A DNA stretch of 64,000 nucleotides from an uncultured Nitrospiraceae bacterium (GTDB taxonomy: Bacteria > Nitrospirota > Thermodesulfovibrionia > Thermodesulfovibrionales > SM23-35), in NCBI GenBank assembly GCA_963727775.1, contig CAVSHB010000002.1:192001-256000 (forward strand), given 5' to 3'. Shown in pieces: positions 29,854-55,851 of the stretch (the first letter of the stretch is position 1; each line of letters starts with the position of its first letter). Position numbers and translations under genes: made by a program. Under the pieces are notes generated by a model, which was not told the origin of the DNA, did not search any database, and saw nothing but the letters and a program-made list of their open reading frames with translations.

Positions 29854-29928
29854 GCCGGTGTAGCTCAGAGGCAGAGCAGCTGATTCGTAATCAGCAGGTC
29901 GTCGGTTCAACTCCGACCACCGGCTCCA
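29854..29928 (+). tRNA. tRNA-Thr (CGT)
   Basis: GCCGGTG/CACCGGC acceptor stem, GCTGA-TTCGTAA-TCAGC anticodon arm, GGTTCAACTCC T-arm, encoded CCA. Confidence 0.97.
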
Positions 29929-29984
29929 ATTTTTCTTTTATAATTCATGCAGTTAGACATAGCCTAAAAATCACGCTGTAAGCC

Positions 29985-30016
29985 GTTCTAAAATTGTTCT
30001 AAAATTGTTCTAAAAT
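29985..30016 (+). repeat. Three tandem GTTCTAAAAT(T) repeats, putative integrase arm-type sites
   Basis: 11-bp tandem unit between the tRNA 3' end and the integrase stop codon. Confidence 0.6.
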
Positions 30017-30087
30017 CCAGAGATTCCGCGTCAGCTGCTCCGTGAAAAATAGATTTCAGATTTTCGCGGTTTCCTTATAGGATGAGG

Positions 30088-31245
30088 TTAAAATTTTTCG
30101 GGGCAAAAACGGGACAAAGCCCTACCACAAACCACGGTATCAGTCCCAGTAGGGTGAGTGTATATCTCGTTGGCTTGGTTCGTCTCGTGCCCGGTCATGG
30201 CACGACGCTTGTCGGCGCTGATGTTGGCATCCTTTAGGAGCGTGTTTGCCAAGTGTCTAATCTCCTTGAATTTAAACTGCGGCACACCGTTCTCGTCCAG
30301 ATACCCCGCCTTGTCCAGAGCGTTCCCCCACATGCTACGGAAGTGACTGTAGGGAACCCACCCTTTTGGCGACGCATGGCAAATGAGCCATGGGCTGAGT
30401 TCACGCCGATTTATTTTAAGATGTTCCAGGAAAGCCATAAAAGTAGGGTTCTCTGAATAGTCGATGACGATCGGTTTATCGGTTTTCTGACGTAAGAATG
30501 ATACGCGCTGCTTCTTCATATCAAAATCTGTCCATTTAAGGCTCTTCACTTCGTTCTCATGCTGGACGAGATGGAAGGCCAGCATGATTGCTCTCTTCAG
30601 CATCGGAGCGGCAAAAGGATAAATTTTTTTAAACAGGACTTCCTCTTCAAGCCTCAAGTTGTGTTTCTTCTCTTTGAACTTTTTTATTCCATCCGCTGGG
30701 TTGATATTTATATAGCCTTCATCTTTAGCAAACTGCAATATTACATGTAAGAGGGCAAGCCTCCTGTTTGCCTCATATGGTGTTTTTTTCAAAGATCGAT
30801 GGTACCTGATGATTTCTTGCCTGCTGATTTTAGAGGTAGGTTTATTGTTGAATTTCTTTTTAAGTTCTCCAGACATGCGTAGATAATTTCTGTTGGTGCT
30901 ATCAGCAAGTGTCTTGGCGTCCTCATCGGCAGTCGCTTCGGTATCATTCTGAACTTCATCTTTAAAATACTGTTCTACGAGTGCGGAAAAGGCTATTGTC
31001 CTCTTATTGGTTCTTTCAATCTTTGAGATATCAAATCCCAATTCTTGGTTCAGATGGGCCTCTATCTCGGCCCATCTCCGCAAAGCTACACTCTCATCTT
31101 GCGTCCTTAGCGCGAACCATTTCGGTGGGCAGGCTTCTTCCACGACCCGGACGTAGTAAAACCAACCTTTTTTTAATATAAGGTGTCTCGGGTAATGCTT
31201 ATTAAATTTCCTTTTCCTTCCCATCCTTAAAGAATTATATTTCAT
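30088..31245 (-). CDS. Tyrosine recombinase / phage-type integrase
   Basis: 385 aa with an N-terminal arm-binding-like region (GWFYYVRV), KEIRH, TGH and terminal IYTH; adjacent to a tRNA. Confidence 0.88.
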   Translation of the reverse strand: MKYNSLRMGRKRKFNKHYPRHLILKKGWFYYVRVVEEACPPKWFALRTQDESVALRRWAEIEAHLNQELGFDISKIERTNKRTIAFSALVEQYFKDEVQNDTEATADEDAKTLADSTNRNYLRMSGELKKKFNNKPTSKISRQEIIRYHRSLKKTPYEANRRLALLHVILQFAKDEGYININPADGIKKFKEKKHNLRLEEEVLFKKIYPFAAPMLKRAIMLAFHLVQHENEVKSLKWTDFDMKKQRVSFLRQKTDKPIVIDYSENPTFMAFLEHLKINRRELSPWLICHASPKGWVPYSHFRSMWGNALDKAGYLDENGVPQFKFKEIRHLANTLLKDANISADKRRAMTGHETNQANEIYTHPTGTDTVVCGRALSRFCPEKF

Positions 31246-34178: not shown

Positions 34179-35216
34179 ATGGTAAGAGAAGACATAGATA
34201 ATGAAATCATCCAACAAGCAGTAGAGGCACTGAAGAAGAATGTCCCATGGGAAATTGATATACAGACAAGGGAACAAGAGGCGAATCTTGCCTTCAAGGC
34301 AGACTTTGAAGTCCGCATGGTATTGCAGAACGAGGAGATATTGTTCTATGCCGAGGTAAAGGCAAATGTTACAAACGCAGGCAAAGCCTTGGCCCTGATG
34401 CTAAAACGAGAGACGCCCCATCCGTTTCTTCTGGTTACCAGATACGTCAACCCTCAAATGGCAGAACAGTTAAGACAAGATGGGATAGAGTTCATCGATA
34501 CAGCTGGGAATGCATATATCAATCACCTGCCCACCTATATTTTTATTAAAGGAAACAGACCTATGGAAATCGACCGAACTGTTCGCGTAAGACGAGCTTT
34601 TCAACCGACGGGGCTAAAGATGATTTACGCTTTTTTATGCCATCCCGGGTTGGAGGATAAAGCTTATCGGGAAATTGCAAACATTGCAGATATTGCACTT
34701 GGCGCTGTCGGATGGGTGACGAGAGACCTGAGAGATCTTGGATATATGATTGATATGGGTAAAAAAGGTAAGAAAATAATTAAGAAGGAAGAGCTATTGA
34801 AACGGTGGGTGATTGAATATGCAGAAAAAATGAGACCCAAGCTCTTTCTGGGGCGATTCAGAGGGCATGAAGGTTGGTGGCAACAAAAAACCTTGGACCC
34901 AAATGTTGCACAATGGGGGGGAGAAGTGGCTGCTGCCAGAATGACCCAATACTTGAAGCCAGAAATCGTGACTGTTTATACCATAAAGGAGAATTTGGAA
35001 CGATTCCTTATTGAAAACAGGCTCACGAAAGACCACAATGGAGATGTGGAAATTCTCGAAAGATTTTGGAAGCCAATACAGAATAACCTCTACGAGGATA
35101 AAGTTCATCCGATACTTGTTTATGCTGATCTGTTGGCAACAGGCAATCAGAGGAACATGGAAACTGCAAAGGTAATTTATGAGCGAGATATTATTCGACT
35201 TATCAGGGAAACTTAG
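34179..35216 (+). CDS. Type IV toxin-antitoxin antitoxin, AbiEi family
   Basis: FIDTAGNAYI, YREIANIADIALGAV HTH, WGGEVAA, VHPILVYADLL; upstream of an NTase. Confidence 0.85.
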   Translation: MVREDIDNEIIQQAVEALKKNVPWEIDIQTREQEANLAFKADFEVRMVLQNEEILFYAEVKANVTNAGKALALMLKRETPHPFLLVTRYVNPQMAEQLRQDGIEFIDTAGNAYINHLPTYIFIKGNRPMEIDRTVRVRRAFQPTGLKMIYAFLCHPGLEDKAYREIANIADIALGAVGWVTRDLRDLGYMIDMGKKGKKIIKKEELLKRWVIEYAEKMRPKLFLGRFRGHEGWWQQKTLDPNVAQWGGEVAAARMTQYLKPEIVTVYTIKENLERFLIENRLTKDHNGDVEILERFWKPIQNNLYEDKVHPILVYADLLATGNQRNMETAKVIYERDIIRLIRET

Positions 35217-36042
35217 TCCCCCTATTATCGATGCCGTCTATAATTTGAAGAAAGTAGCTGATTCTTTGAATATCCCATTGATCATTGTTGGGGCAACAGC
35301 GAGGGATATAATATTCGAACATCGTTATAAAATAAAATCTTCCCGCGCGACAAAAGACATAGATTTGGGGATAGAAGTCGCTGATTGGGATCAGTTCCAC
35401 ATGTTCTCAAAAGCTCTTCTTGAAACAGGGAAATTCTCCTCAACGGAAGAGAAGCAGCGATTTCAATTCGGAGCTACCATTATTGATATAATTCCTTTTG
35501 GTTCTATAACTGACGAGCATAAAAAAATAAGCTGGCCTCCAGAACATGAGATCATCATGAGTATGCTCGGATTCAAAGAGGCATATGAGTATTGTCTATC
35601 AGTAAGATTAAACACAGAGCCTGAACTTATTGTGAAACTTTCATCCCTGCCTGGGTTAGCGCTTTTGAAAATTATTTCATGGCAGGACAATTATCCAAAT
35701 CGCAGGAAAGATGCAGAAGATTTGCTGTTTATCATGAAGAAGTATTCACAAGCAGGAAATGAACCGAGGCTTTATGAGGAAGAATTACCACTTCTTCAAG
35801 AAGAAGGCGCCGATCCGATTTTAGCTGGAATTCGATTGCTTGGGAGGGATATGGCAAAGATATCTGATAGAGATACCATGCATACCATTAGTGAAATTCT
35901 GAAAAATGAAACAGGGGAACAGTCCAGATACAGATTAGTCGAAGACATGATAAGCAGTGTCCCATCAAAATATGATTTTGATGAGATCTTGAACGATGTA
36001 GAAAAGTTGAAACAAGGATTTTTTGAAACTGTAACAACGTGA
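35179..36042 (+). CDS. Nucleotidyltransferase toxin, AbiEii family
   Basis: IVGATARD, RATKDIDLG, IDIIPFG, LLKIISW...KDAEDL. Confidence 0.85.
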   Translation: MSEILFDLSGKLSPPIIDAVYNLKKVADSLNIPLIIVGATARDIIFEHRYKIKSSRATKDIDLGIEVADWDQFHMFSKALLETGKFSSTEEKQRFQFGATIIDIIPFGSITDEHKKISWPPEHEIIMSMLGFKEAYEYCLSVRLNTEPELIVKLSSLPGLALLKIISWQDNYPNRRKDAEDLLFIMKKYSQAGNEPRLYEEELPLLQEEGADPILAGIRLLGRDMAKISDRDTMHTISEILKNETGEQSRYRLVEDMISSVPSKYDFDEILNDVEKLKQGFFETVTT

Positions 36043-36287
36043 CAAGAAACTGCTCACGTTGTCCATAAAACAACTCTCTTGTAGATGAGGAAGCTTAGGC
36101 AGAATCTGTCCTTGGCGCATAGTTACCCGGGAGCGTCCACACTTCTCCATCATTTCGTCACTAAAGGCATATTCATCGTCCTCAAGTGAAGTGGCGTTCT
36201 TCAAATGTTTGTCTTCGGGTACTAACATTCATGCCACTCTTCCAATCAAGAATAATTATCCTATCACTGAATCACCCTTGAGCTTAA

Positions 36288-37908
36288 CCCGAAAAGTGCA
36301 ATTGGAAAAGACATGCCTATAGATCCAAGCCTATCAAGGCATTCTCGGAATTAGCGTTAGCAAAGCTAATCTTTACACTGTTTTTTGACATACCTCCTTT
36401 TGAAGTTTATTGTCATCATCCAACTGCAGTGCAATTATCAAGACCTGGCGGAAAGTATTGTCTTATGCGGTTAAAGAGGTATAACAGTTTTGATCGTACT
36501 TTCTGTGTAAAGACGGAGATCCGCAATACCAGCCTTCTGCCATCTCCTCCCAATTGGGCGGGGAGGACAAAATACTTATACCGCAAGGTCTTCAGGCGTT
36601 CTATCTTTTCTTTCTGCCCCAGTATCTGATGTCGAAACAGGACAAACAGATTGTAGATGAATACCCGAATAAGCATTGCCGCCTCTGTTGAATAGAAATA
36701 CTTCATCGAGAACCCTCCAAGCGCAAAATCCTCTTTCAGTTCCTTGATGGTATTCTCATCGTTCGCCCTCGGCCTGCACTGCTTCCATACCTCATATGCG
36801 GGATCATGTGAATTGGTTATCCATACGCTGTAACGATAATTCCCTGTATCAAACTCATCTCTAAAAAGAGATAACTCCTTCCCCATCGCATGCGGCCTCT
36901 TCTTTATATCCTGCCGGACTGCAATGAATCTCCTGTCGGTTATCCAATCGACATGCTGGAAAAAGAACTCCGTGATCCATATCCCCTCTTCTATCCGCTT
37001 CCAGTTTTGTTGTGCATAAACCATCCTCTGCAAAGGACGGTATAGGCGAGCGGCTATGATATAGATTAATTTTCTCTTCTCAAGCAGTTCGATGAACTCC
37101 CTAAGATAAAATCCACTGTCTGCAATAATGCCCTTGATATCGATATGACCGTTGATCCTCTGCCATGTGGATTCAAAAAATCCAATAATGTTGTTCCATG
37201 ACATCACGTTGCCGGGGCGGTTCCAAAGATTTATCACATACTTGTTTCTGTTAAGAAATGCCAGAAGCGGGCTGTGGCTACCACGGCCCTTCTTCTTCGG
37301 GTTATATCCCCTCTTGACTCCCTCCTGTTTTCCGTATCGCTCAAGGACTGTAGAATCGAACGTCAACCAGTCCTCTTTGAGCTCTTTCCAGGGGATCAAT
37401 CTCTTCAAGTATCCCCATAATCCCTCCGACATCTCTTCCACTTCCTTCAGTTTTCTGATCTTCCTGAAAAGCCTGCCCAATGTCGTCGAGGCGATAGGAA
37501 GCCTCTTCACTGCAAAAAGATCGGTGAAAATCTCCTGCCAACCAAGATAAAGTAGATGAGAAAACCTGCTGCCTCCCGCATAGATCAGAAGGATGTATGC
37601 CAATACCTTGCTGTATATCCCCATTCCATTGGGTGAACTCTCATGGATCGGAATCACCTCTTGCAAAATTCCTCTCAATTTGATCTTTTCAAAAAATGCA
37701 GCCAATAAACTGAATCCCCCATATGCCGTCATCTTCTTCTCCGTAAATCCAATCCTTACTTTATTTATTTCGATCTTTGTGCTACATTTTGACTGCATAT
37801 TTCTATTCTCCTTTCGTTTAGAGTTGATGGTCGCTTAAACCTATTGATTCTAATACGAAAGGAGAATTTCTTCGGGGATATTATTTTAGGTCAACTGCAC
37901 TTTTTGGG
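36288..37908 (-). mobile_element. IS1380-family insertion sequence
   Basis: IRs CCCGAAAAGTGCAATTG / CAACTGCACTTTTTGGG, flanked by TTAA at 36284-36287 and 37909-37912. Confidence 0.85.
36416..37798 (-). CDS. IS1380-family transposase
   Basis: TAYGG, TFDSTVLERYGKQEG...GYNP, RPGN, ADSGFY, RANDENTIKELK. Confidence 0.92.
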   Translation of the reverse strand: MQSKCSTKIEINKVRIGFTEKKMTAYGGFSLLAAFFEKIKLRGILQEVIPIHESSPNGMGIYSKVLAYILLIYAGGSRFSHLLYLGWQEIFTDLFAVKRLPIASTTLGRLFRKIRKLKEVEEMSEGLWGYLKRLIPWKELKEDWLTFDSTVLERYGKQEGVKRGYNPKKKGRGSHSPLLAFLNRNKYVINLWNRPGNVMSWNNIIGFFESTWQRINGHIDIKGIIADSGFYLREFIELLEKRKLIYIIAARLYRPLQRMVYAQQNWKRIEEGIWITEFFFQHVDWITDRRFIAVRQDIKKRPHAMGKELSLFRDEFDTGNYRYSVWITNSHDPAYEVWKQCRPRANDENTIKELKEDFALGGFSMKYFYSTEAAMLIRVFIYNLFVLFRHQILGQKEKIERLKTLRYKYFVLPAQLGGDGRRLVLRISVFTQKVRSKLLYLFNRIRQYFPPGLDNCTAVG

Positions 37909-38046
37909 TTAATGTGGGTTAGACGAATTGTTATCACACAATTGACCTCCCAATAATGACTGCTCAGCACTCATGACATGGGGAAGTAGAGGCTCAGCCG
38001 AAAGAAAATACTCAAAAAGATATAGCAGAACTGATAAAATAAGGCT

Positions 38047-38358
38047 ATGAAACAGGCAGTGAAAAATGTCGAAGAAGTCAAGGCAATACTTTCAGCTCAC
38101 AAAGACGAAGTTACCCGAAAGTATCGCGTGACCGAGATAGGTATTTTCGGTTCTTTTGCTCGCGGCGAACAGAGACACAGAAGCGATATCGATATCCTTG
38201 TAGAATTTGAGCAGAGGAATATCCCAGGACTCCTAAAGTTGATTGAGTTGGAGAGATATCTCGAGAAGATCCTTAGAAAAAGGGTGGACCTCGTGAGAAA
38301 GGGCGGCATACGGCCTGAACTCAGGAAAAGCATTCTTAGAGAGGTTGTTTACATATGA
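38047..38358 (+). CDS. Minimal nucleotidyltransferase (MNT) antitoxin
   Basis: GIFGSFARGEQ...SDIDILVEF...VDLV. Confidence 0.9.
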   Translation: MKQAVKNVEEVKAILSAHKDEVTRKYRVTEIGIFGSFARGEQRHRSDIDILVEFEQRNIPGLLKLIELERYLEKILRKRVDLVRKGGIRPELRKSILREVVYI

Positions 38359-38723
38359 TGAGAGAGTGGAAGCTCTTTATACAGGATATATATCAGGCGA
38401 TACAGCACATAAAAGAGTTTGTCGGCACAATGAAGCGCAGGGAGTTTCTTGCCGATGAGAAGACCAGAAGCGCCGTCGCCTTCAAGATTGAGAATATCGG
38501 GGAAGCATCAAAGAATGTACCCAAGGAGATAAGGGCAAAATACAAGGAACTTCCGTGGACCAACATGGCGAGGATGAGAGATAAGATTACGCATTTTTAT
38601 TTCGGCATCGATTACAAAGTCGTCTGGTCTGTAGTCAAGAAAGAGTTGCCCGCTATAGAACCTGCTCTTACGAAAGTCCTGAGCGACCTGAAAGTTTCTG
38701 CGCCCAAGAAGAAGAAATCATAA
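38355..38723 (+). CDS. HEPN/DUF86 ribonuclease toxin (HepT-like)
   Basis: IGEASKN...PW...MRDKITHFYFGID (Rx4H motif); overlaps the MNT stop. Confidence 0.9.
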   Translation: MMREWKLFIQDIYQAIQHIKEFVGTMKRREFLADEKTRSAVAFKIENIGEASKNVPKEIRAKYKELPWTNMARMRDKITHFYFGIDYKVVWSVVKKELPAIEPALTKVLSDLKVSAPKKKKS

Positions 38724-39558: not shown

Positions 39559-40044
39559 TCACGAAAGGACGCCGTGCTCTATGCGGCCAATGAGATCCTC
39601 GACTTCATCAGCACCCACTTGTGTATCGAGCAGTTCAAGCGGGATTCTCTCGCCGAGTCCATATTGAGGCTGTTTCAACCACGAGCGAGCATTCTCTTCG
39701 TCTCCTGTCAGTTCTATCGCTAAAGCGAGTATTCTTGCGATCCTATAGAGGCGGTCACTGGCCACAAGGGGCAGGCGAGCTGATAGCTTTCTTATTGAGC
39801 TAAGCTTCCTCTGGCTAATACCTAAGACATAGGACAAATCCTCTTTTGACATATCTAAAGCTTTCATGACACGCTCGCATGCGGTAAAGGACATACCTCT
39901 GCGTATAAGCCGATCAATACTTATAAAATCAACTTTTTTCATTCTTGTGCCAAGAATTGCCAATATTCTTAGGTTTAATCGTAATTCCATGTTTACATGT
40001 TTCATTTTCAATCCGGAGTAAAAGTATTTTGCTAAGTATATCAC
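39559..40044 (-). CDS. Xre/MbcA/ParS-type antitoxin (DUF2384), apparently orphan; start uncertain
   Basis: LGISQRKL...SDRLYRIARILALA...ARSWL...PLELLDT.VGADEVEDLIGRIEHGV. Confidence 0.8.
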   Translation of the reverse strand: MIYLAKYFYSGLKMKHVNMELRLNLRILAILGTRMKKVDFISIDRLIRRGMSFTACERVMKALDMSKEDLSYVLGISQRKLSSIRKLSARLPLVASDRLYRIARILALAIELTGDEENARSWLKQPQYGLGERIPLELLDTQVGADEVEDLIGRIEHGVLS

Positions 40045-40344: not shown

Positions 40345-40803
40345 TCATTTATTTGGTATGGGTACCGTGGACACTATTACGATTACTTTCACTAGAAAAA
40401 TCATCACAACCAGAGTTAAATAAAAGGGCCAAACTGAAAACGACCCCAAAGCAGCAAAAAAGTTTTTGATCTTATTGCCAGAAGGACGCACACAATAAAG
40501 GTCAGTGGCCACCACCTTGCCACCATGTAATTTCTCGATAAATAAACTGTAAGAATCGCGGAACCTTTTTTCCAGCGATAGGTAAGAGGCATCGAGAAAA
40601 CAAAATAAGGCCGTTGGTATAAGGGCTATAAGGGCAAATTGAGGCTTCCCCTTGTCAGCTACGATAACCAAAATTGCAGAAACTAGAGTAATACACCATG
40701 CCTTGCATGACGTACTGTTGGAAGCCATCCGATTAATTACAGATTGCGTAATGCTGAGATGTGCCTGTACAGACGGAGAATCCTCTTTGAAATTATCGAC
40801 CAT
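40345..40803 (-). CDS. Small multi-TM membrane protein, putative effector of the adjacent TIR
   Basis: HLSITQSVINRMASNS...KAW...LDASYLSLEKRFR...SVWPFY; three hydrophobic segments; starts 4 nt after the TIR stop. Confidence 0.75.
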   Translation of the reverse strand: MVDNFKEDSPSVQAHLSITQSVINRMASNSTSCKAWCITLVSAILVIVADKGKPQFALIALIPTALFCFLDASYLSLEKRFRDSYSLFIEKLHGGKVVATDLYCVRPSGNKIKNFFAALGSFSVWPFYLTLVVMIFLVKVIVIVSTVPIPNK

Positions 40804-40807
40804 AGCT

Positions 40808-41314
40808 TCACTTTCTCTGAGCGGCCGCTTCTATCCAATCTTCAATATTGTCTTTTATATCATTATATGCATCCGTACTCTTTGGGTTATAGCACTTCAC
40901 CACGGTTGATAACTTTTTGCCCTTATTGGGGCCATCCGAAAAGGTGAAATCGTCAAATGGATTTTTGCCTTGGTTACATGTTCCAGTCCCAGTATCTTTT
41001 TTCTTCTTCGGGCAGCTTAAATTATGGATATAAATTCCCAAAAGCCCCCTTTTATCGTTCCAAGCTTTTTCTATTTCATACTTAACCAAAGGCCGACCTG
41101 CTGTTTTTTCACCTACAAGCACAATAACACAAGACCTGTACTGCATGTTGTCATCGATCCATTTTTTTACCCCGCCTTCTTTTTTTTGTAGCTTTTCCCA
41201 TTCATTCGGGGAAACAGGTTCATCCCCTTCTATAACGCCCATATTTCTAATTTGTTGCACTCTAAATACATCGTTGTCGAAATGAAAACTGTAAAATACT
41301 TGTTTCTTTGCCAT
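40808..41314 (-). CDS. TIR domain protein, ThsB/DUF1863-like
   Basis: VFYSFHFDND.FRVQQIRN, WIDDNM...SCVIVLVG..T, KYEI (catalytic Glu), GLLGIYIH, NPF. Confidence 0.88.
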   Translation of the reverse strand: MAKKQVFYSFHFDNDVFRVQQIRNMGVIEGDEPVSPNEWEKLQKKEGGVKKWIDDNMQYRSCVIVLVGEKTAGRPLVKYEIEKAWNDKRGLLGIYIHNLSCPKKKKDTGTGTCNQGKNPFDDFTFSDGPNKGKKLSTVVKCYNPKSTDAYNDIKDNIEDWIEAAAQRK

Positions 41315-41476: not shown

Positions 41477-41695
41477 TCACTTTTTTTTCAAAAGTTGATC
41501 GAGGGTTTCCACACCCTCGTTTTTCAAGACAGTACCGAGTTTAGTATTGGATCGATAACCCGTCGCGAACTTTTCTCCATATTCATCTCGTAATGTCCCG
41601 ACCAATGTATCGTCCCGTTTTTTGCGGATCTGGCCGTCATTGTCTCGCATCCGGTCGTCGAGGCCTGTAGGGAAATGCTTCTGCTTCTTCGTCAT
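41477..41695 (-). CDS. Conserved-looking small protein (72 aa)
   Basis: AAGGAGG RBS; GLDDRMRDNDGQIRKKRDDTLVGTLRDEYG...GYRSNTKLGTVL. Confidence 0.7.
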   Translation of the reverse strand: MTKKQKHFPTGLDDRMRDNDGQIRKKRDDTLVGTLRDEYGEKFATGYRSNTKLGTVLKNEGVETLDQLLKKK

Positions 41696-42042
41696 GTGTT
41701 GTCCTCCTTTTTTGCATCTGTGAAGGAAGAGCCTATTGGCCTCCTTCATCCATCTGTTGCTGCTCTACCTTAAATAGCACCTGAGCGTCAAATCAAAACC
41801 TATTTGCCGCATTTGTGGTCGACCGTGGATGCGACTTATAACATTCACAGTCTTCGGCCCGGGCTTGCCTTACCTCACGGGACGGTATTTGACATTAGCC
41901 AAATGAAACTCCTCCCTTAAGGCGATTAATGACCGCCTCTGTCGTTTCGATATAATGGGCCTGAATATGGGAGTGCTCATGTGCCATTTAAAGCAGAGCA
42001 TTTTATGTCGAACCTACATCCAAGCGTTTCATGGTTTTTGTC

Positions 42043-42338: not shown

Positions 42339-42608
42339 TTATTTTGTGTTTCTGCGATTATAGTAACGCTCCAAATATTTGTCGGGATTCCCCCGTGTTA
42401 TTTTGCCTTTGTTTGGGTTGAAATTACCGGGGAAGCTATAGTTCTTATAAGGATTGCTGGAAGGCTGCGTTCTCTGATACTGGCTGACATACGTGCCATT
42501 ACTTCTGAAATAACCTCTGACCGCTCCTGCGTCGGAAGACCTGGCAACGGTAAAGAAAAATATGAAAATTAAAGCGCTCATCAGTAAAACTGTTTTCATT
42601 GTCCTCAT
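42339..42608 (-). CDS. Small secreted basic protein (VRGYxRSNGTYV family)
   Basis: Signal peptide, then VRGYFRSNGTYVSQYQRT.P...NYSFPGNFNP; AGGAGGGG RBS. Confidence 0.75.
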   Translation of the reverse strand: MRTMKTVLLMSALIFIFFFTVARSSDAGAVRGYFRSNGTYVSQYQRTQPSSNPYKNYSFPGNFNPNKGKITRGNPDKYLERYYNRRNTK

Positions 42609-42639
42609 TTGTCCCCTCCTAAATTTTTTCTTATTACAA

Positions 42640-42666
42640 AGACTGCTGGAAAAGGATTTTTCTTCC
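42640..42666 (-). promoter_or_regulatory. Putative ECF-sigma promoter, copy 1
   Basis: GGAAGAAAAA-tccttttcc-AGCAGTCT, ending 31 nt upstream of the ATG at 42608. Confidence 0.65.
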
Positions 42667-42761
42667 ATTGGAAAGTCAACTTTTTGATAATTAAAAAATT
42701 CTATTAAGAATCAAGAAATTAATGTTTTAAAAGTTTCCTTAAAATCCTTATAATTCAATTT

Positions 42762-43364
42762 ATGTCAGATAATGTGCTTCAGATCATTAATGATTGCCTG
42801 TCCGATAAGGAGGGCGGCTGGGATCTTTTTTTTAAAGAGTACGCTTCCGTCGCCATGAACATTCTGAATCACCACTTCCCAAGCTTCTCGCAGGCCGATA
42901 AAGACGACGTTATTCAAAATATTTTTTCAAAACTGCTAAAGGGCGGTCTCAAAAATTTCCAAGGCACCAATAAATATGAGTTTCTTGCTTATTTCAAGAA
43001 AATCGCGACTAATGAGGCGCGAACTTATCTTGAATATGCGGGGAAATGGAAGACCTCTGTATCTCTTGACCAGGGTAAAAATTGTGCTGACGACATATTG
43101 CCACCCTTGGAAATCCCCGATAATAAGCCCTTGCCTGACGTAGAAATGGAAGGTAATGAATTGGTAAAGTTAATCCATACGGTTCTGGACGGCGTCCCGG
43201 TAGAAACCAAACAAATATTTCTAATGAAGGCTGAGGGATACAAGGACAAGGAGGTTTCCGACATATTGGGGATATCTATGGGTACTGTGGCATCTCGGTA
43301 CTCACGAATCAGAGAAAAGTTGCGGCGCTTACTGGGCAACAATAATACGGAAGAAAAACACTAA
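42762..43364 (+). CDS. ECF RNA polymerase sigma factor
   Basis: Region 2 DDVIQNIFSKL...FLAYFKKIATN; region 4 EGYKDKEVSDILGISMGTVASRYSR. Confidence 0.9.
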   Translation: MSDNVLQIINDCLSDKEGGWDLFFKEYASVAMNILNHHFPSFSQADKDDVIQNIFSKLLKGGLKNFQGTNKYEFLAYFKKIATNEARTYLEYAGKWKTSVSLDQGKNCADDILPPLEIPDNKPLPDVEMEGNELVKLIHTVLDGVPVETKQIFLMKAEGYKDKEVSDILGISMGTVASRYSRIREKLRRLLGNNNTEEKH

Positions 43365-43375
43365 AAAAGCAGTCT
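43349..43375 (+). promoter_or_regulatory. Putative ECF-sigma promoter, copy 2
   Basis: GGAAGAAAAA-cactaaaaa-AGCAGTCT, overlapping the sigma stop and ending 13 nt before the anti-sigma ATG. Confidence 0.65.
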
Positions 43376-43388
43376 ATAAAGAAGAGAA

Positions 43389-44867
43389 ATGAATATACCT
43401 CTTAAAGAAAAGATAGAGAATCTCCTGCAAGACATCGATAGTCTGAAGACACCGGCATGTGTCGATATCAATACTATTGGTTTGTATGCCGAAAACAAGC
43501 TTTCGAACAAAGAAGAACAGAAAGCAGAGAACCACTTGCAATCTTGCCTTTATTGTCTAAAGCAGTTAAATGACATGAAGGAGATGCTTTATTTCCAAGA
43601 ACAGAAGACTTCTATCTCTCCTGAACTTATTAAAAAACTTAGTGGGTTATGTCTGAAACAGGAAGAAACAATCCGAAAAACCGGCTTTCTTACGTTATTC
43701 GTCGGCAAGATAAAAGACTTTCTTGCTTTTCCGTTCAGGCAATGGCGATATTCGGTAGTCGGCCTTGCGAGCGCATGTATGACAAGCCTGTTTATTTTGT
43801 TCTTTTTAAGGACTGAAACCCATAATGTTTTGGTGCCGCACATCGATTCAAACTCTTTCGTCAATATTAGAGCACTCAGCGACAGCGGTAAAGTGTTAAA
43901 CGAGGCGCAAGGCGTTGTTATTAATTCCAAGGGGCTTGTAGCTTCCAATCTTTACCAGCTAGCCGGTGCTAGTTCCATTCAGGTTACTCTACGCGACGGC
44001 CGTACCTATCAGACAAGAAATATCTGGAAGGACGAGGACAAAAACCTTGCCGTTATGAAGATCAATAACGAATCACTTCCTTCTATACCTATCGCTGATA
44101 TAAAGCAGGTTAATATTGGGCAGAGCGTTTTTGTTGTCACGGACCCTACCATGGCAAAAAAAGGGTTCAAGGAATCGTTAGTAAGCGATTTCAAGCAGAT
44201 GCCCGGCAGGCGTAAAGAGAGCACGGTACAGTATATCCAGCTTGCGACATTTACTACAAACACCACAAAAGGGGCACTGATTGATGGACAAGGGAAACTG
44301 GTAGGCCTTCTCATAACCGAAGAGAAGAATATTAATCTTGCCGTTCCGATCGCCGATGCCGAACGGATAGTAAAAGAAGGCAAAGCAATTCCCGTGAGCG
44401 AACTAAAACGAAACAAATTCTCTGCCGATGCGCTAAATTTCTATATGAAAGGCATTCTCGCCCGTGATGCGCAACGGTGGAACGAAGCAATGGAGTTTTA
44501 TAAGAAGGCGCTGAAGCTTAACCCAAATTTGGTGGGCGCTCACATCGAGCTAGGATATGTATATTATATAAAGCATTTATATGATCTTGAAGCGCGGGAA
44601 TATGAGGATGTTCTTAAGATCGACCCTCAAAACAAGGATGCTCTGTATTCATTGGGAACAAACTTGGAAACGAGGGGATTATTTAAAGAGGCAATAAATA
44701 AATATGAAGAAGTAATTGCGCTTGATCCAGAGGATGCGGAGACAATTTTTGAATTGGGGCTGGCTTACCTAGCTCTGGGGCAGAAAGATAAGGCCATGAC
44801 GCTTTATCCTAAATTAAAGGCAATAGATCCCGGATATGGCGAGGTATTGAGGCGCTTAGGTAAATAA
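43389..44867 (+). CDS. Anti-sigma factor: ZAS zinc finger, TM helix, trypsin-like pseudoprotease, TPR repeats
   Basis: ENHLQSCLYC (HxxxCxxC), one TM, HtrA-like fold lacking the His/Asp/Ser triad, about four TPRs. Confidence 0.8.
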   Translation: MNIPLKEKIENLLQDIDSLKTPACVDINTIGLYAENKLSNKEEQKAENHLQSCLYCLKQLNDMKEMLYFQEQKTSISPELIKKLSGLCLKQEETIRKTGFLTLFVGKIKDFLAFPFRQWRYSVVGLASACMTSLFILFFLRTETHNVLVPHIDSNSFVNIRALSDSGKVLNEAQGVVINSKGLVASNLYQLAGASSIQVTLRDGRTYQTRNIWKDEDKNLAVMKINNESLPSIPIADIKQVNIGQSVFVVTDPTMAKKGFKESLVSDFKQMPGRRKESTVQYIQLATFTTNTTKGALIDGQGKLVGLLITEEKNINLAVPIADAERIVKEGKAIPVSELKRNKFSADALNFYMKGILARDAQRWNEAMEFYKKALKLNPNLVGAHIELGYVYYIKHLYDLEAREYEDVLKIDPQNKDALYSLGTNLETRGLFKEAINKYEEVIALDPEDAETIFELGLAYLALGQKDKAMTLYPKLKAIDPGYGEVLRRLGK

Positions 44868-45045: not shown

Positions 45046-45411
45046 ATGAAACAAGGGATTATCTCTAAAAAAGAAAATGGCAAGGTAATTGTAAGGCTTG
45101 CCAATGAGTACTATGAACGACAAGCCGTCTCCGCTGCGGCGCACAAACTGACTGATCGGTTTGTTGTTGTGATAGACCCCATAGATGACCGCGCTGTCGG
45201 CGTATACCTTGAACCGAAAGGAGATGCCAACCTTAATGAGCAAAGCATTGATGATGCGATTTCTGCATTCTGCAATGACATTTTGGATGAGCAGGTCAGG
45301 CTTGATCTCGACAGGCAGTATGGCAGCTTGCGTGACTTAATAGTCAGACAGGCTTTTACTCCCCTCACTTCTTCTGAATTATCAAACGAAGTCAAGGGAC
45401 TCAAGAAATAA
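45046..45411 (+). CDS. hxsD: His-Xaa-Ser system protein HxsD
   Basis: YYERQAVSAAAHKLTDRF...FCNDILDEQVRLDL...LRDLIVRQAF; directly upstream of hxsB. Confidence 0.85.
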   Translation: MKQGIISKKENGKVIVRLANEYYERQAVSAAAHKLTDRFVVVIDPIDDRAVGVYLEPKGDANLNEQSIDDAISAFCNDILDEQVRLDLDRQYGSLRDLIVRQAFTPLTSSELSNEVKGLKK

Positions 45412-45417
45412 GCCAGG

Positions 45418-46902
45418 ATGTCTTTTATACCTCAAACCAATACCTCACCCTATAACTTTTTGCCTTTCAAGTTTATGCGTTTCCATCACGAAAAGATACT
45501 CCTTGTCAATGAGGCTGGTGAGTATCTTTTTCTTAGTGTGGAGGACTTTAACGGTTTCCTCAACTTTGGGCTACCTGCAGATTCCAACACTTATCAGGAC
45601 CTGAAGGCGAAACATTTTTTATACGCCTCTGATAAAGCTCTTGTGCCAACGATAGAGATGCTTTCAACCAAGTATCGTACTAAAAAAGCTTTCCTCAGAA
45701 ATTTTACTACCCTGCATATGGTGGTTACAACTCTTAGATGCAATCACCGCTGCAATTATTGCCATGCATCAAGCCAGGATGCGAATGCACAGAAGTTTGA
45801 TATGTCTATCGAAACAGCCCAGCGTGTAACAGAGGTCATCTTTGAGACCCCCTCTCCGATTATTAAGATTGAGTTCCAGGGAGGAGAGTCGCTCCTGAAT
45901 TTTAATGCAGTCAAAGAAATTGTAAGATACGCCGAACGCCTCAACAAAAAACGGCATAAACAGCTCAGCTTTGTGCTGTGCACGAACCTCACACTGATTG
46001 ACAAGGATAACTTACAGTTTCTCAAAGAGCATGATATCCTGATCTCCACATCCCTTGATGGCCCTCATGAACTCCATAATGCCAATAGGATAATGAGGGA
46101 CGGTGGAGACAGCTATAACACCTTTATTGAGAAACTGGAACTTTCGAGGGGTATGCTCGGGCATGATCGAATATCGGCGCTCTTGACGGTAACCAAAGGT
46201 AATCTTTCCCTACTTCGGAATGTTGTCGATGAATATGTGAGACTGGGGTTTAACGGCGTATTTCTGAGGTCTCTGAACCCTTACGGATATGCGAAGAAAG
46301 AAAGCGGACGGCTGCTTCAGTATTCTATGGAAGAGTTTATTGAGGCATACAAACAGACTCTCGCATACATAATCGAGCTGAATCTGAAGGGCAGGTTCTT
46401 TTCAGAATATTTCGCCACTATCCTGCTTTCGAGAATCATGACTCCTTTTTCTACGGGCTTCATGGATCTCCAGTCTCCGGCCGGTGCCGGCATCCTTGGC
46501 GTGATATATAACCATAATGGTGATGTCTACCCTACGGACGAGGCAAGAATGCTCGCAAATACTGGGGATACCCACTTCAGGCTGGGCAACGTCCACCATG
46601 ATACCCATAATGAAATCTTCGGGAGTGCCCTCTTAAGGAAAATTACAAGGAACTCCTGCACGGAAACGATACCGGGCTGCCATGACTGTGCATTCCAAAT
46701 GTACTGTGGGGCTGATCCGATTCGTGCCTATTCACAACAGAATGACAATACATATATTGGGCACATCCCGAGCAGTGAGTTTTGCAAGAAGCATAAGACC
46801 ATAATTGCCTTCCTTTTTGACATCATAGAGAACAATCCCGACGCCTGTGATGTCTTCTGGTCCTGGATCACAAAGCGCAACCTGAAGGAAGTCAGAGTAT
46901 GA
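45418..46902 (+). CDS. hxsB: His-Xaa-Ser system radical SAM/SPASM maturase HxsB
   Basis: FLPFKF..., LHMVVTTLRCNHRCNYC, IEFQGGE, DLQSPAGAG, YPTDEARM, and SPASM cysteines CHDC...YCGADP...FC. Confidence 0.92.
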   Translation: MSFIPQTNTSPYNFLPFKFMRFHHEKILLVNEAGEYLFLSVEDFNGFLNFGLPADSNTYQDLKAKHFLYASDKALVPTIEMLSTKYRTKKAFLRNFTTLHMVVTTLRCNHRCNYCHASSQDANAQKFDMSIETAQRVTEVIFETPSPIIKIEFQGGESLLNFNAVKEIVRYAERLNKKRHKQLSFVLCTNLTLIDKDNLQFLKEHDILISTSLDGPHELHNANRIMRDGGDSYNTFIEKLELSRGMLGHDRISALLTVTKGNLSLLRNVVDEYVRLGFNGVFLRSLNPYGYAKKESGRLLQYSMEEFIEAYKQTLAYIIELNLKGRFFSEYFATILLSRIMTPFSTGFMDLQSPAGAGILGVIYNHNGDVYPTDEARMLANTGDTHFRLGNVHHDTHNEIFGSALLRKITRNSCTETIPGCHDCAFQMYCGADPIRAYSQQNDNTYIGHIPSSEFCKKHKTIIAFLFDIIENNPDACDVFWSWITKRNLKEVRV

Positions 46903-48077
46903 AGACATTCAGCGGCATTCCAACAAATCTAACAAGAACTCTGGTTGCGAAAGTTGTTAAGCATCCAAAAAGTCGATGGATGTCTTGGGTCCCTGAGCCA
47001 ACGGCCTATGTAGCGGACACTCCTCCCAAGAGACTTCCGAAGGCCTCCGTTTATATATTCTCGGGACACGAGAATCTTAGTACAATCCCTGGCAAATCTC
47101 CAGTTGTTCATGGTGTCCCGCGGGATGTAGTTGCCCAGCTCAATGATGGTGACGTGGTAAAGATTGAAAAGGACGGGCAGGTGCAAGTGCTTTATGAGGT
47201 AGCATCCCAACAGAACGTGATTTTTGTAACCAACCGCTGTAATTTGCACTGCGTGATGTGCCCACAGCCGTCCAAAGCAGATGAGGAGGGGATGCTGGGG
47301 AATACCTTAAGACTCATTCGTATGATGTCCCCCGAAAGCACAAAGAACATTGCCATCACCGGCGGAGAACCTACCCTGCTTGGGCAGGGATTACAGACTC
47401 TCATTAAATCTTGCAAGGACAACCTTCCGAGAACTTCACTTATTGTTCTTACAAACGGCACCAGACTCAAAGACTTAGAGTTGGTAAGGCAGCTGACCAT
47501 GGTCGGGCATCCCGCCCTTACGTTTGCTATCCCGCTTTATTCCGATGTAGACGTAATCCATGACAAGATCGTAGGTACCCCGGGGAGCTTTCATGCGGCC
47601 ATCAGGGGGCTACACAATCTGGCCCTTTTCCGACATTTCGTCGAAATAAGAACCGTTGTCACCGCGATGAACTACACAAGGCTTCCCAAACTGGCCGAAT
47701 TTATCTATCGGAACTTACCTTTTGCTGCCCATATTGCCATCATGGCACTTGAAATGACAGGAAATGCCAGAGAGAACTCCGAGGCCATATGGATAGATCC
47801 ATTCGATTATACCCGTGAACTGGAGATGGCAGTGCGTATATTGAATAGGGCAGGGCTGAATGTCTCCATCTATAATCACCAACTCTGTGTTGTCCCTCAA
47901 AACATGTGGCGCTTCTGCAGACAGTCAATATCAGCCTGGAAAAACTCCTATATTGGGCAATGTGGCGAATGTCTGGTAAAACAAAAATGCGGCGGTTTTT
48001 TTACTACTGGCGGGCAATACATCAGCCAGCATATCAACCCTATATCGCATCTGTATGACCAACCTTTTGCGCCTTGA
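46899..48077 (+). CDS. hxsC: His-Xaa-Ser system radical SAM maturase HxsC
   Basis: FVTNRCNLHCVMCPQP, ITGGEPT, LTNG, SIYNHQLC, SISAWKN...C..C..K..CGGFF. Confidence 0.92.
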   Translation: MKTFSGIPTNLTRTLVAKVVKHPKSRWMSWVPEPTAYVADTPPKRLPKASVYIFSGHENLSTIPGKSPVVHGVPRDVVAQLNDGDVVKIEKDGQVQVLYEVASQQNVIFVTNRCNLHCVMCPQPSKADEEGMLGNTLRLIRMMSPESTKNIAITGGEPTLLGQGLQTLIKSCKDNLPRTSLIVLTNGTRLKDLELVRQLTMVGHPALTFAIPLYSDVDVIHDKIVGTPGSFHAAIRGLHNLALFRHFVEIRTVVTAMNYTRLPKLAEFIYRNLPFAAHIAIMALEMTGNARENSEAIWIDPFDYTRELEMAVRILNRAGLNVSIYNHQLCVVPQNMWRFCRQSISAWKNSYIGQCGECLVKQKCGGFFTTGGQYISQHINPISHLYDQPFAP

Positions 48078-48095
48078 CATTGCGCCTTGCTTTTG

Positions 48096-48124
48096 TTGAC
48101 AAACACTCGTCTGTGTGATATAAA
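48096..48124 (+). promoter_or_regulatory. Sigma70-type promoter of the HxS precursor gene
   Basis: TTGACA-17 nt-TATAAA with an extended -10 TG. Confidence 0.6.
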
Positions 48125-48156
48125 CTAAATAAGAGTACGATTTAAGAGGTGTATTT

Positions 48157-48432
48157 ATGAAATCATGGATTAAGAAAACAGCGTTAGGTCTAGTTGCCGC
48201 CCTTTCCTTTTTTGGCGTTAATGTTGGCTCGACCAATGCCTCCCTTCAGAGCGATACGGTAAAGATCAAGGAAAACACGCCGCTGTATCTCGAACACGCG
48301 TCAAACATCCTCACACATGCTCAGGAGAGAAACAATTTTTTGGCAGATCACGAATCGCACTACTCTCATGACAGCCATTCTTCCCACTCCTCTCATGACT
48401 CACATTACTCACATTATAGTTCACGCGATTAG
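48157..48432 (+). CDS. hxsA: His-Xaa-Ser repeat precursor peptide (HxsA-type)
   Basis: Signal-like leader and C-terminal core HES-HYS-HDS-HSS-HSS-HDS-HYS-HYS-SRD; GAGG RBS. Confidence 0.9.
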   Translation: MKSWIKKTALGLVAALSFFGVNVGSTNASLQSDTVKIKENTPLYLEHASNILTHAQERNNFLADHESHYSHDSHSSHSSHDSHYSHYSSRD

Positions 48433-53453: not shown

Positions 53454-53871
53454 ATGAAGAAAAAGCCTGTTTTCGGGTTTCTTTTTTTTGTTTTGATGGT
53501 TTCGGCGGCACTATGGCCCATAAGGTCTGCGCGAGCCGAGGAGGTAGTGCGGGCAAAGCTTACCAACGGCCTCAGGGTAGTGATCGTCCGGAATCCGCTT
53601 GTGCCGGTAGCCACGACAGTGGTCAATTACCTTGTCGGTTCCGATGAGGCTCCCGCTGGATTCCCTGGTATGGCTCACGCACAGGAACATATGATGTTCC
53701 GTGGAACCCCCGGGCTCACAGCCGACCAGCTTGCGCGCATTACGGCGGAGATGGGGGGCAATTTTGACGCTGACACCCAGCAGAATGTAACACAGTATTT
53801 TTTTACCGTGCCGGTCGAAGACCTGGATGTGGCCTTGCACATAGAAGCAATACGGATGAAAGGCGTCCTAG
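53454..53871 (+). pseudogene. M16 (pitrilysin-family) zinc peptidase, 5' fragment cut by IS1182
   Basis: Signal peptide, LTNGLRV, GSDE, HAQEH (HxxEH); the frame runs into the IS end (LGVCRT*). Confidence 0.85.
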
Positions 53872-55574
53872 GAGTCTGTCGGACTTGAATTGCTGTTTTT
53901 GACAGCGGTTGGAATCCGAGAGAGTCGATTGTAGTTATTTTTCATGATTTGATCGTCTGTCATCGGTTCTTTCCTGCCGGTGTTTTGTTGGATACATTAT
54001 GCCATCGCCATTTTCAGGCGCCTACCTGGCTGTTCCTCAATGCATGCAGCCTTTTGATGTTCCATGCAATGCAGATCATATCCCACTCGCCATTGACTGC
54101 AGTAAAACCACGCAACAGGAATCGGTCAAATCCCATAGCTGCCTTGATTACCCCAAACGCCGGCTCCACAGTACTCTTGCGTATCGCATAAATTGCCTTA
54201 CCGGCAACTGTCTTCAACCGATGTTTCATTCTTGTCACTGCATCAGCATCAACCGGCAATGGAGGCGGTTCGACGAATCGCTCCCATAAAGGCTGATTAT
54301 GACTCTGCCGATCTACTGCTATATATGGCTCTATTCCTTTGCTCTCACATTCTTGCACATTTGCTTCGCTGTAATACCCGCTGTCGGCTATTATAGTTTT
54401 TACTTTGCCAAGTTGTTCGGGCAGATATGTAAGCGCTTCAAGCGCTGGTTTCATCTGCTGTTTGTCATTGGATTGTTGTGTTACATGCGTTGCGACAATA
54501 AGCATTGTTTCTGTATCCACGGCTGCTTGAGCATTATAAGCCTGCTTGAATCCTCCACCCGATGCCGGCATTATGCGAGATTCTTCATCGGTCAGATTGA
54601 CCTGATCTTTGTCAGTTGGCCCGGCTGCAGGCGGCTTGGGTCCTTTGCCTCGGGGTTTCTTGCCGCTCTGCTTTTGTTTGGCTACACGCTCTGCCTGTTT
54701 CTTTTCACTGTCGGCTTGTTCCATTGCATGCCGCTCTGCCGCACGGCGCTCTATCTCAGCTTTTGCTTCAGCTATCATTTTCAGCCGCTTCTCTCGCCGC
54801 TCCAGCTCTTCCGGGATGTTCATGCCGTCAGGAATGTCAGCTTTGTCAGCAGCCTCAGCTTTCTTCATCAGTTCCGCCACTTCCACTTTCAACTTATTCT
54901 CTATTTTGCATGCATGCCCGTAGCTCAACGCCTTGTGCTTTGAGGCATTGGCTTTCATTTTGGTCCCATCCAAGCTGACCGTGCCTAACTTCAATACCCC
55001 GGTTTCTGCTGCTATCATTAGTATCTGCACAAACAGTTCTTTCAGCTTAGGCAAAAACCGACGTCGAAAGGTTGCTATTGTGTCATGGTCAGGGTGACTG
55101 TTGGCTGCCACATACCGGAATGCTACAGAGTCGTACGTGCTACGCTCTAATTGCCTGCTCGAAAAGACTCCCGTCGCATATCCGTAAAATAATAATGCCA
55201 CCAGCATCTCAGGGCTGTATGCCTCACTGCCTCGTCCTGCATAATCATTTTTCAACCGGTCAAGATTAAGCTGATCCACTATCTCTACGACAAATCTCGC
55301 CAAGTGACCCTCGGGCAACCATTCCTGCACCGACGGCGGAAATAAATATATCGTCTCTCTGTCACATTGTTTGAACATTATGCTGATCTCCTGTTGTTCA
55401 TTCTTATGCCGCTTGTCTATTATGCCATAAGGAACGCCCATGCAGGTCTGTCGGACTTAGATAATTACAGGCCGAAAAGATTTCTGCTGCCCAGTTTGCA
55501 ATAAAGGTTCTTAAGAGACTGCCGTGTCCTTCAAGAAGTAAACTTTTCAGAAATGTTGAAAGTCCGACAGACTC
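53872..55574 (-). mobile_element. IS1182-family insertion sequence
   Basis: IRs GAGTCTGTCGGACTT / AAGTCCGACAGACTC, flanked by CTAG at 53868-53871 and 55575-55578. Confidence 0.88.
54014..55378 (-). CDS. IS1182-family transposase
   Basis: LFPPSVQEWLPEGHLARF, SSRQLE, PDHDTIATFR, LDGTKMKANAS, NLTDEESRIM, ADSGY, RKSTVEPAFG. Confidence 0.93.
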   Translation of the reverse strand: MFKQCDRETIYLFPPSVQEWLPEGHLARFVVEIVDQLNLDRLKNDYAGRGSEAYSPEMLVALLFYGYATGVFSSRQLERSTYDSVAFRYVAANSHPDHDTIATFRRRFLPKLKELFVQILMIAAETGVLKLGTVSLDGTKMKANASKHKALSYGHACKIENKLKVEVAELMKKAEAADKADIPDGMNIPEELERREKRLKMIAEAKAEIERRAAERHAMEQADSEKKQAERVAKQKQSGKKPRGKGPKPPAAGPTDKDQVNLTDEESRIMPASGGGFKQAYNAQAAVDTETMLIVATHVTQQSNDKQQMKPALEALTYLPEQLGKVKTIIADSGYYSEANVQECESKGIEPYIAVDRQSHNQPLWERFVEPPPLPVDADAVTRMKHRLKTVAGKAIYAIRKSTVEPAFGVIKAAMGFDRFLLRGFTAVNGEWDMICIAWNIKRLHALRNSQVGA

Positions 55575-55851
55575 CTAGGTGGAATCGTATATTACTTAGA
55601 ACCCCCCTGGCTATGAGGTCACTGATAGACCAAAATTCTTTACTGGCATTGCGAGCCTTACACTGCTGTGCCTGACGAACACCATTCTTTTGAATGATCC
55701 AAAGATCGACTCCTTGCTCGTCATCACCGACGCCCTCAATGGTGACAGATTTAATTTTCTCTTCAAGAAGGGAAAGAAGTTGAGTGGCAACCCATCGGCC
55801 TTCATACCGGTTGCCAAGTTTATCCGCCAATCCTCCTGATTCAAATGGCAT
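55575..55851 (-). pseudogene. 5' fragment of a PD-(D/E)xK nuclease-led gene (typical N-terminus of large STAND/AVAST-like proteins), cut by IS1182
   Basis: GGLADKLGNRYEGRW...E...GVDLW...QQCK; the frame runs into the IS end (LGVCRT...). Confidence 0.65.

Follow-up and report, generated by a model that had tools for sequence, protein, structure and literature searches.

Can a His-Xaa-Ser (HXS) system act against phages when its precursor peptide carries neither a cell-wall anchor nor basic repeats? This question is raised by a cluster of four genes, hxsD-hxsB-hxsC-hxsA, which lies at positions 45046-48432 of a stretch of 64,000 nucleotides (nt), called the window here, from contig CAVSHB010000002.1 of an uncultured Nitrospiraceae bacterium. 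All reading frames of the cluster are intact and it is the sole one in its genome; the genes, their order and their coordinates, with a precursor of 91 amino acids (aa) behind hxsD-hxsB-hxsC, were correctly given in an earlier reading of the bare sequence (the original prediction). In E. coli, genes of the same order, hxsD-hxsB-hxsC-hxsA, were reported to form an anti-phage system that delays DNA entry, restricts 110 of 113 coliphages and needs all four genes (Li et al., Nat Commun 2026; PMC13128918). HxsA of E. coli was described as a protein of 214 aa that has a signal peptide, followed by five H-x-S repeats of basic character, as well as a peptidoglycan (PG)-binding domain, and that is cleaved, exported and changed by +8 Da (+C/-4H) on SHRSS, and HxsC was reported to bind HxsD (PMC13128918). 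The view of the original prediction that the role of such systems is not established is thus outdated for this long form, for which a block of phage DNA entry has been published (PMC13128918); its choice of defence as a candidate role agrees with that report.

The two maturases of the window belong to the expected families. The gene hxsB (45418-46902, forward strand, as are the other three) encodes a radical S-adenosylmethionine (SAM)/SPASM maturase of 494 aa that scored 581.2 bits on TIGR03978 against a cut-off of 370, and hxsC (46899-48077) encodes a radical SAM maturase of 392 aa that scored 358 bits on TIGR03977 against 267.9, the one copy above this cut-off in the genome. The accessory protein of 121 aa encoded by hxsD (45046-45411) scored 48.2 bits on TIGR03976, slightly below the cut-off of 50 (E 1e-12, computed without the initial Met); this was its only family match, and the position of the gene is as expected. 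In E. coli, defence was lost on mutating two CxxC pairs in each enzyme, the Tyr and D-x3-R of HxsD, or the Ser, His and Ser of the last repeat (PMC13128918), and all these motif types are present in the window proteins. C108, C112 and C115 as well as C421, C424 and C430 of HxsB were invariant in an alignment of 57 sequences, as were C114, C118, C121, C330, C355, C358 and C364 of HxsC among 56. HxsD has Tyr22-Tyr23 and, as regards the LLNDYxLRE-type motif of its family, D81-x3-R85, the Asp and Arg of which are at least 90% conserved in 59 homologues.

The precursor is where the window departs from E. coli. The product of hxsA (48157-48432) is a short precursor of 91 aa, in which a signal-like N-terminus (about residues 1-28), basic and then hydrophobic, with an 11-residue hydropathy peak of 2.3, is followed by a TPLYL leader motif, eight tandem H-x-S units (residues 65-88) and the end SRD; Gly20 is at least 90% conserved among homologues. 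The eight His of the array stand at three-residue spacing with Asp, Glu, Tyr and Ser between them, the last repeat is SHYSS, that is, S-H-x-S-S with its Ser, His and Ser, and the protein contains no Cys. For residues 65-91 a net charge of -3, an isoelectric point (pI) of 6.2 and a charge of -2.5 at pH 7 were calculated, the core of a Klebsiella plasmid HxsA having a pI of 12.0 and +3.2 at pH 7. A Pfam scan of the window HxsA gave no family match. Since two defining features of the effector, the PG domain and the basic repeats, fail, the locus is a member of the His-Xaa-Ser system family, yet not of the characterised E. coli type. The lack of both is the real point of difference, and it went unseen in the original prediction.

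Precursors of this kind are widespread. A homologue search restricted to proteins of 50-160 aa gave 106 sequences, window HxsA included, and 105 of these end no more than 10 residues after the last repeat. The C-terminus is SHYSS in 85 and SHYSG in 14 (99/106 fixed as SHYS-S/G), and a leader motif of the TPLYL type is carried by 84. A profile search without length limit found 1419 clusters (50% identity) with E<=0.001, 350 of them with E<=1e-10, and 148 of the best 150 being 76-108 aa long. Because of the last two counts it was concluded that short HxsA, judged by its sequences, is a conserved family and not the product of damage. Short types have already been catalogued by NCBIfam (HxsA2, HxsA4), and the HxsA2 cut-off was passed by three short relatives tested (P0095, L032, L155). 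The window HxsA, on the other hand, scored below every curated cut-off (TIGR03979, 22.8 against 121.65; HxsA2, NF038296, 20.8 against 48; HxsA4, NF038313, 29 against 55) and the HxsA3 model (NF038309) gave no match; as 18 of 19 homologues tested also scored under all HxsA cut-offs, the TPLYL...SHYSS subfamily is without a curated model. A divergent short precursor (L123:7054-7380, L127:3008-3388), in which several H-x-S units are replaced by H-x-N or H-x-A and the His spacing is kept but not the Ser, has a close relative in a genome (G413) of the window's family.

The survey covered 120 hxs loci, which came from genomes and plasmids, from phages and viral contigs and from metagenomes (L033, on a 3.6-kb contig, was left out), and these were reduced to 75 groups at 85% HxsB identity. 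Only short precursors were found in 31 groups and only long ones in 27; 4 were mixed or other, and none was seen in 13, many of which sit on short or cut contigs. These proportions lean toward the window's clade, because the metagenome set consists of the best 80 of 589 matches, and the count of short loci is a lower bound, low by at least one, as the repeat pattern missed the H-x-N/A precursor of L123. In a quick HxsB tree of 61 of the 75 loci, short and long types alternate, with 12 and 9 changes, at least 6 and at least 4 of them forced by the starred branches; the group of the window holds nine short loci and one mixed locus (support 89). Since the types alternate in this way and both occur together in three locus groups, the sequences indicate that one machinery serves short and long HxsA. 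The anchor is modular, as PG_binding_1 is present in just 10 of 28 long HxsA (SH3 in one). The mean core charge was +1.35 for long (n=34) and +0.38 for short forms (n=52), with a p value of 0.002 for sequences that are not independent. Two or three H-x-S proteins per locus were seen at L038:6288-6827, L135, L140, L144, L125, L142 and L159, including proteins of 140-190 aa with N- or C-terminal repeats set between hxsD, hxsB and hxsC; one machinery may therefore tag several cargo proteins. At L121, L220-L223 and L226 the order is D-C-B-A, with a membrane protein of about 350 aa between hxsD and hxsC that presumably resembles a prepilin-type peptidase, and the precursor of L121 scores above the HxsA3 cut-off.

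The distribution of hxs is patchy, as for defence cargo. Of 401 genomes of the phylum, 7 have HxsC above the cut-off, and those of the same family among the 401, 13 in number, have none; precursor-profile matches were found in 5 of 251 genomes of the order. Two other genomes of the same family (G406, G413) contain partial hxs loci in different settings, and the stretch examined around a precursor-profile match in G376 held no hxs genes. A scan of genome contigs with HxsC as a single sequence gave 79 loci, of which one was a true hxs locus and the other 78 were kept as controls, and the same kind of query against viral contigs gave no match. Loci with short precursors are found on viral contigs and in a Leptospira phage, and hxs loci also occur on plasmids. 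The closest relative of the window cluster, L034, sits beside an integrase, and short-precursor loci were found next to Gabija, type I restriction-modification, AbiE, Tiamat-like and Pycsar genes. A pair of Pycsar genes, for an effector and a cyclase, lies directly downstream of short hxsA (L155:10918-11547, L161:11554-12498) in one set of loci from gut metagenomes and viral contigs that are closely related to each other.

The original prediction gave the precursor its own promoter, and a promoter-like site is indeed present. The gap of 79 nt between hxsC and hxsA holds a sigma-70-type TTGACA-17 nt-TATAAA with an extended TG (48096-48124, forward strand), which is the only occurrence of the pattern TTGACA-N14-TG-N-TATAA in the genome; the consensus promoter scanner omitted it, as a T at position 6 is required there. 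TTGACA was found just upstream of hxsA at 7 of the 32 loci with hxsA after hxsC, against 1.2 expected, and, in a subset chosen post hoc, at 6 of the 7 short-precursor loci where at least 70 nt separate hxsC from hxsA. The site was found again in G443, and in G468 TTGACA-17-TATAAA precedes an inverted long hxsA. Such a site ahead of hxsA suggests that the peptide is made in excess over HxsB, HxsC and HxsD, in line with the reported detection of HxsA, and not of these three proteins, in E. coli (PMC13128918).

Structure models were used to look at leader recognition. In the HxsB model (predicted local distance difference test, pLDDT, 92.1), residues 17-89 form three strands and then three helices. 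Structurally the model is nearest to anSME and to CteB, ChlB and TigE, which are peptide maturases; CteB (5wgg) aligned over HxsB residues 15-474 with Z 34.9 and a root-mean-square deviation (rmsd) of 4.2 (410 aligned), and ChlB (9gm3) with Z 33.7 and rmsd 2.8 (351 aligned). The N-terminal domain of CteB, we assume, is a recognition element (RRE) for peptides made by the ribosome and modified after translation (RiPPs). Because HxsB aligns to CteB, its N-terminus is likely a leader-recognition domain of the RRE type, as predicted from the model, and HxsB the likely leader binder. The HxsD model (pLDDT 92.7) is a small alpha/beta domain to which a long helix is joined. Its top matches, with Z 8.6 at best (rmsd 2.2, 80 aligned), are RPB11/ACT-like folds of the alpha/beta kind, and none was informative. 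A leader binder of the PqqD type was considered for HxsD, and no PqqD chain was present among the structural matches listed.

Taken together, we lean, if only somewhat, towards an HXS system that is intact, lies on an island and has a short precursor, the product of which is an exported, radical-SAM-modified His peptide acting in phage defence. By analogy with E. coli, modification, cleavage, export and an anti-phage role are likely for the window HxsA, and on the same grounds we agree with the original prediction on peptide modification by HxsB and HxsC and on export through the signal-like leader. HxsB would grip the TPLYL leader through its predicted RRE-like domain, and HxsB and HxsC-HxsD would then modify the eight His-x-Ser units. 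Export and trimming of the modified HxsA would leave a small peptide rich in His, which would accumulate in the periplasm and probably hinder the entry of phage DNA there. More speculatively, the modified His array might itself be the working part, retained by its abundance, by self-association or by metal bridging. The chemistry could consist of cyclophane-type links between His(i) and Ser(i+2), or of the +C/-4H change, for which there is no explanation so far, on SHYSS at the end of the array, which matches SHRSS of E. coli. By mass arithmetic, +C/-4H amounts to +7.969 Da, equal to one CH2 minus three H2. Steps of -2 Da, as anticipated in the original prediction, differ from the +8 Da (+C/-4H) reported for HXS (PMC13128918).

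Several points weigh against a role in phage defence. The window HxsA has no PG-binding domain and stops three residues past the last repeat, and mutations in the PG domain of E. coli HxsA were reported to abolish defence (PMC13128918). The electrostatic DNA-capture model published for E. coli relies on basic repeats (PMC13128918), and the array contains no Lys or Arg in the window, nor in 93 of the 106 short homologues. Because the window peptide is without a PG anchor and its core is neutral to acidic, the published route by anchor plus charge would not apply. A split system was sought: there is no PG-binding gene by the window cluster, the two of the genome lying on other contigs, and a separate one near short loci was found at L189 only. 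HxsB and HxsC of the window share no more than about 30-32% identity with the Klebsiella (TIGR03979-type) enzymes. Literature searches turned up no experiment on, or function for, any short HxsA form; with regard to function they gave the E. coli report and its preprint only. Enrichment of hxs near defence genes, a further idea of the original prediction, was not found in the sample: 4 of 33 short-form or close loci had such genes at a distance of three genes or less, as had 2 of 25 controls (Fisher p 0.69), the control being a weak one made of neighbours of unrelated radical SAM genes, with fewer neighbours per locus on the hxs contigs. The raw count at E<=1e-20 was 6/33 against 3/25, before generic HEAT, FtsH and DinG matches were dropped, and two Pycsar genes added by hand are left out of it.

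A stronger claim would be that a modified His-x-Ser peptide of 27-45 residues, with no anchor and no positive charge, alone suffices to stop phage DNA at the periplasm. This we put forward tentatively and with more doubt than belief. If it is true, the modified His array acts as the warhead, long HxsA carries C-terminal domains (PG-binding, SH3 and others) that are accessories and can be swapped, and the electrostatic model of DNA capture, as published, is incomplete. A small RiPP would then serve as an anti-phage barrier, in hundreds of diverse sequence clusters.

The main rival, though unlikely, is that short HxsA is a periplasmic metal-binding peptide (Cu, Ni or Zn) in the manner of the bufferins, with Sec export, ligands made by the enzymes and protection from stress. 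Eight His at three-residue spacing, with Asp, Glu, Tyr and Ser between them, would suit metal binding, as would the lack of an anchor and of positive charge and the promoter-like site of hxsA. Directly upstream, an extracytoplasmic function (ECF) sigma factor is paired with a membrane anti-sigma-like protein (42762-44867, forward strand), and an ECF sigma/anti-sigma pair is described for bufferins too (PMC11626156). The membrane protein (43389-44867), behind the sigma factor, has an N-terminal CxxC segment, a trypsin-like domain and TPRs. The pair is context that is not conserved: neither the sigma factor nor the anti-sigma protein, whole or by its N-terminus, was matched by phmmer in any of the other 119 hxs loci, no Sigma70 domain was found among 130 proteins scanned, nearly all of them hxs neighbours, and the recurring ECF partner raised in the original prediction was therefore rejected. 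Among the scanned neighbours, families of metal transport or metal resistance are not conspicuous. HxsA has no Cys, the cluster contains no MNIO enzyme (no Pfam or NCBIfam match to MNIO, DUF692, among 19 proteins scanned at or around it), and the enzymes are the same as those by which a proven anti-phage effector is matured.

Less probable is a diffusible modified peptide, released from the cell as a signal, an antimicrobial or a competition factor. The layout of leader plus core, with the end at the core in 105 of 106 homologues (50-160 aa), and the structural nearness of HxsB to anSME, CteB, ChlB and TigE are what such a peptide would lead one to expect. No dedicated transporter, active protease or immunity gene is present here or recurs among the neighbours, however, and long forms with cell-wall domains use the same machinery and leader. 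The absence of an adjacent protease, noted in the original prediction, holds with respect to function, but the adjoining upstream gene does encode the trypsin-like domain mentioned above. The catalytic triad of this domain upstream of hxsD is replaced (H>Y, D>N, S>T), and it was rejected as a leader protease for this reason.

It is quite improbable that the system serves mobile elements by entry exclusion of conjugative or superinfecting DNA, to the benefit of the island or prophage and not as broad defence of the host. This explanation draws on the occurrence of hxs on an integrated island here, on viral contigs and on plasmids, on gut-metagenome hxs loci beside integrase and mobilisation-like genes, and on staphylococcal-nuclease (SNase) genes, which were found near 11 of 75 non-redundant hxs loci, often directly adjoining, and near 0 of 78 controls. 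A secreted nuclease could partner a block of DNA entry; no SNase or other nuclease gene lies by the window cluster. The long form, moreover, was reported to protect against 110 of 113 coliphages, and 77% of the E. coli copies lie outside prophages (PMC13128918). The SNase loci are L032, L035, L036, L118, L119, L143, L152, L158, L176, L188 and L191. The idea that the locus is a truncated, inactive remnant of long-form HXS is hardly credible, for, although a domain required in E. coli is missing and the island is full of insertion sequence (IS) elements, every reading frame and every catalytic motif is intact, 350 clusters (50% identity) exist at E<=1e-10 with 148 of the best 150 at 76-108 aa, SHYS-S/G is fixed in 99 of 106, and the promoter-like site recurs in relatives.

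The cluster lies on an island of about 68 kb, which is bounded by a perfect 46-bp repeat of the 3' end of tRNA-Thr (29883-29928 and G000:C2:289576-289621). Its left end consists of tRNA-Thr(CGT), the left attachment (att) site at 29883-29928 and a tyrosine integrase (29854-31245). The defence-rich island of the original prediction stood in part: the island is att-bounded and its left arm carries AbiE, MntA/HepT, Xre and TIR genes, but the right arm, judged by eye, looks like IS copies and mixed cargo. On the left arm, toxin-antitoxin pairs of type IV (AbiEi/AbiEii-like) and type VII (MntA/HepT-like), with a transposase between them, lie at 34179-38723 (forward strand), followed by an Xre/MbcA-type antitoxin (39559-40044), with no adjoining RES toxin among the called open reading frames. 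A ThsB-like TIR protein and a membrane protein (40345-41314, reverse strand) form a candidate PDC-M50 pair (PADLOC PDC-M50A 2.2e-28, ThsB1 3.1e-67, PDC-M50B 4e-56; Pfam ThsB_TIR). Two small genes without library match (41477-41749 and 42339-42668, both reverse strand) have homologues adjoining the two closest hxs relatives, one each (L122:5964-6173; L034:11756-12046), which suggests a shared pool of island cargo. At 53454-55851, an IS1182 copy (13 matches in the genome) has the N-terminal stub of an M16 peptidase on one side and, on the other, the first 106 aa of another gene, one without library match, and both look truncated by its insertion.

As the HXS system is known and common, the window locus alone is no discovery; it is a catalogued variant of a known system, and its worth is that of a compact test of HXS chemistry and of the electrostatic model. 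The report on E. coli leaves open the chemistry of the +8 Da change and the mechanism of the DNA-entry block, and the model given there depends on basic repeats and on an anchor in the wall (PMC13128918). With neither of these, yet within a large conserved family, the locus amounts to a natural deletion experiment. The short core is easy to handle by mass spectrometry and nuclear magnetic resonance, which gives a direct route to the chemistry of HxsB and HxsC and a test of the electrostatic model.

Bufferins are Sec-exported RiPP copper chelators, Cys peptides modified by MNIO enzymes (PMC11626156). The window resembles them in a precursor of about 90 aa, a signal-like N-terminus and an ECF sigma/anti-sigma pair nearby, and differs from what is described for them in that HxsA is without Cys and the ECF link is not conserved. 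Triceptides contain three-residue cyclophanes, as made by MscB on Phe-x-Ser, by HaaB on His-x-Ala and by YhhB (PMC11002830). HXS shares with them an aromatic-x-x motif, in which position 1 is His and position 3 is Ser, and a SPASM-type enzyme; the match of the HxsB model to ChlB is a further likeness. HxsB, however, falls outside the cyclophane maturase families, scoring far under their cut-offs (YhhB 73.9/445, AmcB 59.2/425 and GrrM/OscB 56.1/310 bits), HXS needs two enzymes and HxsD, and the only mass change measured for HXS in the reports cited is +8 Da, as against -2 Da for a triceptide cross-link.

Closer to the window are the NCBIfam types HxsA2 (NF038296, 96 positions) and HxsA4 (NF038313, 93 positions), which likewise consist of a leader and repeats with no C-terminal domain. 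The main text of the E. coli report does not mention short precursors, which may be shown in its figures on gene structures, and its authors placed 99.7% of HXS systems in Pseudomonadota (PMC13128918). In comparison with E. coli, the window HxsA has 91 instead of 214 aa, eight instead of five repeats, SHYSS instead of SHRSS and no PG-binding domain; its core is acidic (pI 6.2, against 12.0 for the Klebsiella plasmid core) and, unlike in E. coli, a gap of 79 nt with a promoter-like site precedes hxsA. Common to both are the gene order, the cysteine motif types of the two radical SAM enzymes, the Tyr and D-x3-R of HxsD, the signal-like N-terminus of HxsA and an array that ends in S-H-x-S-S.

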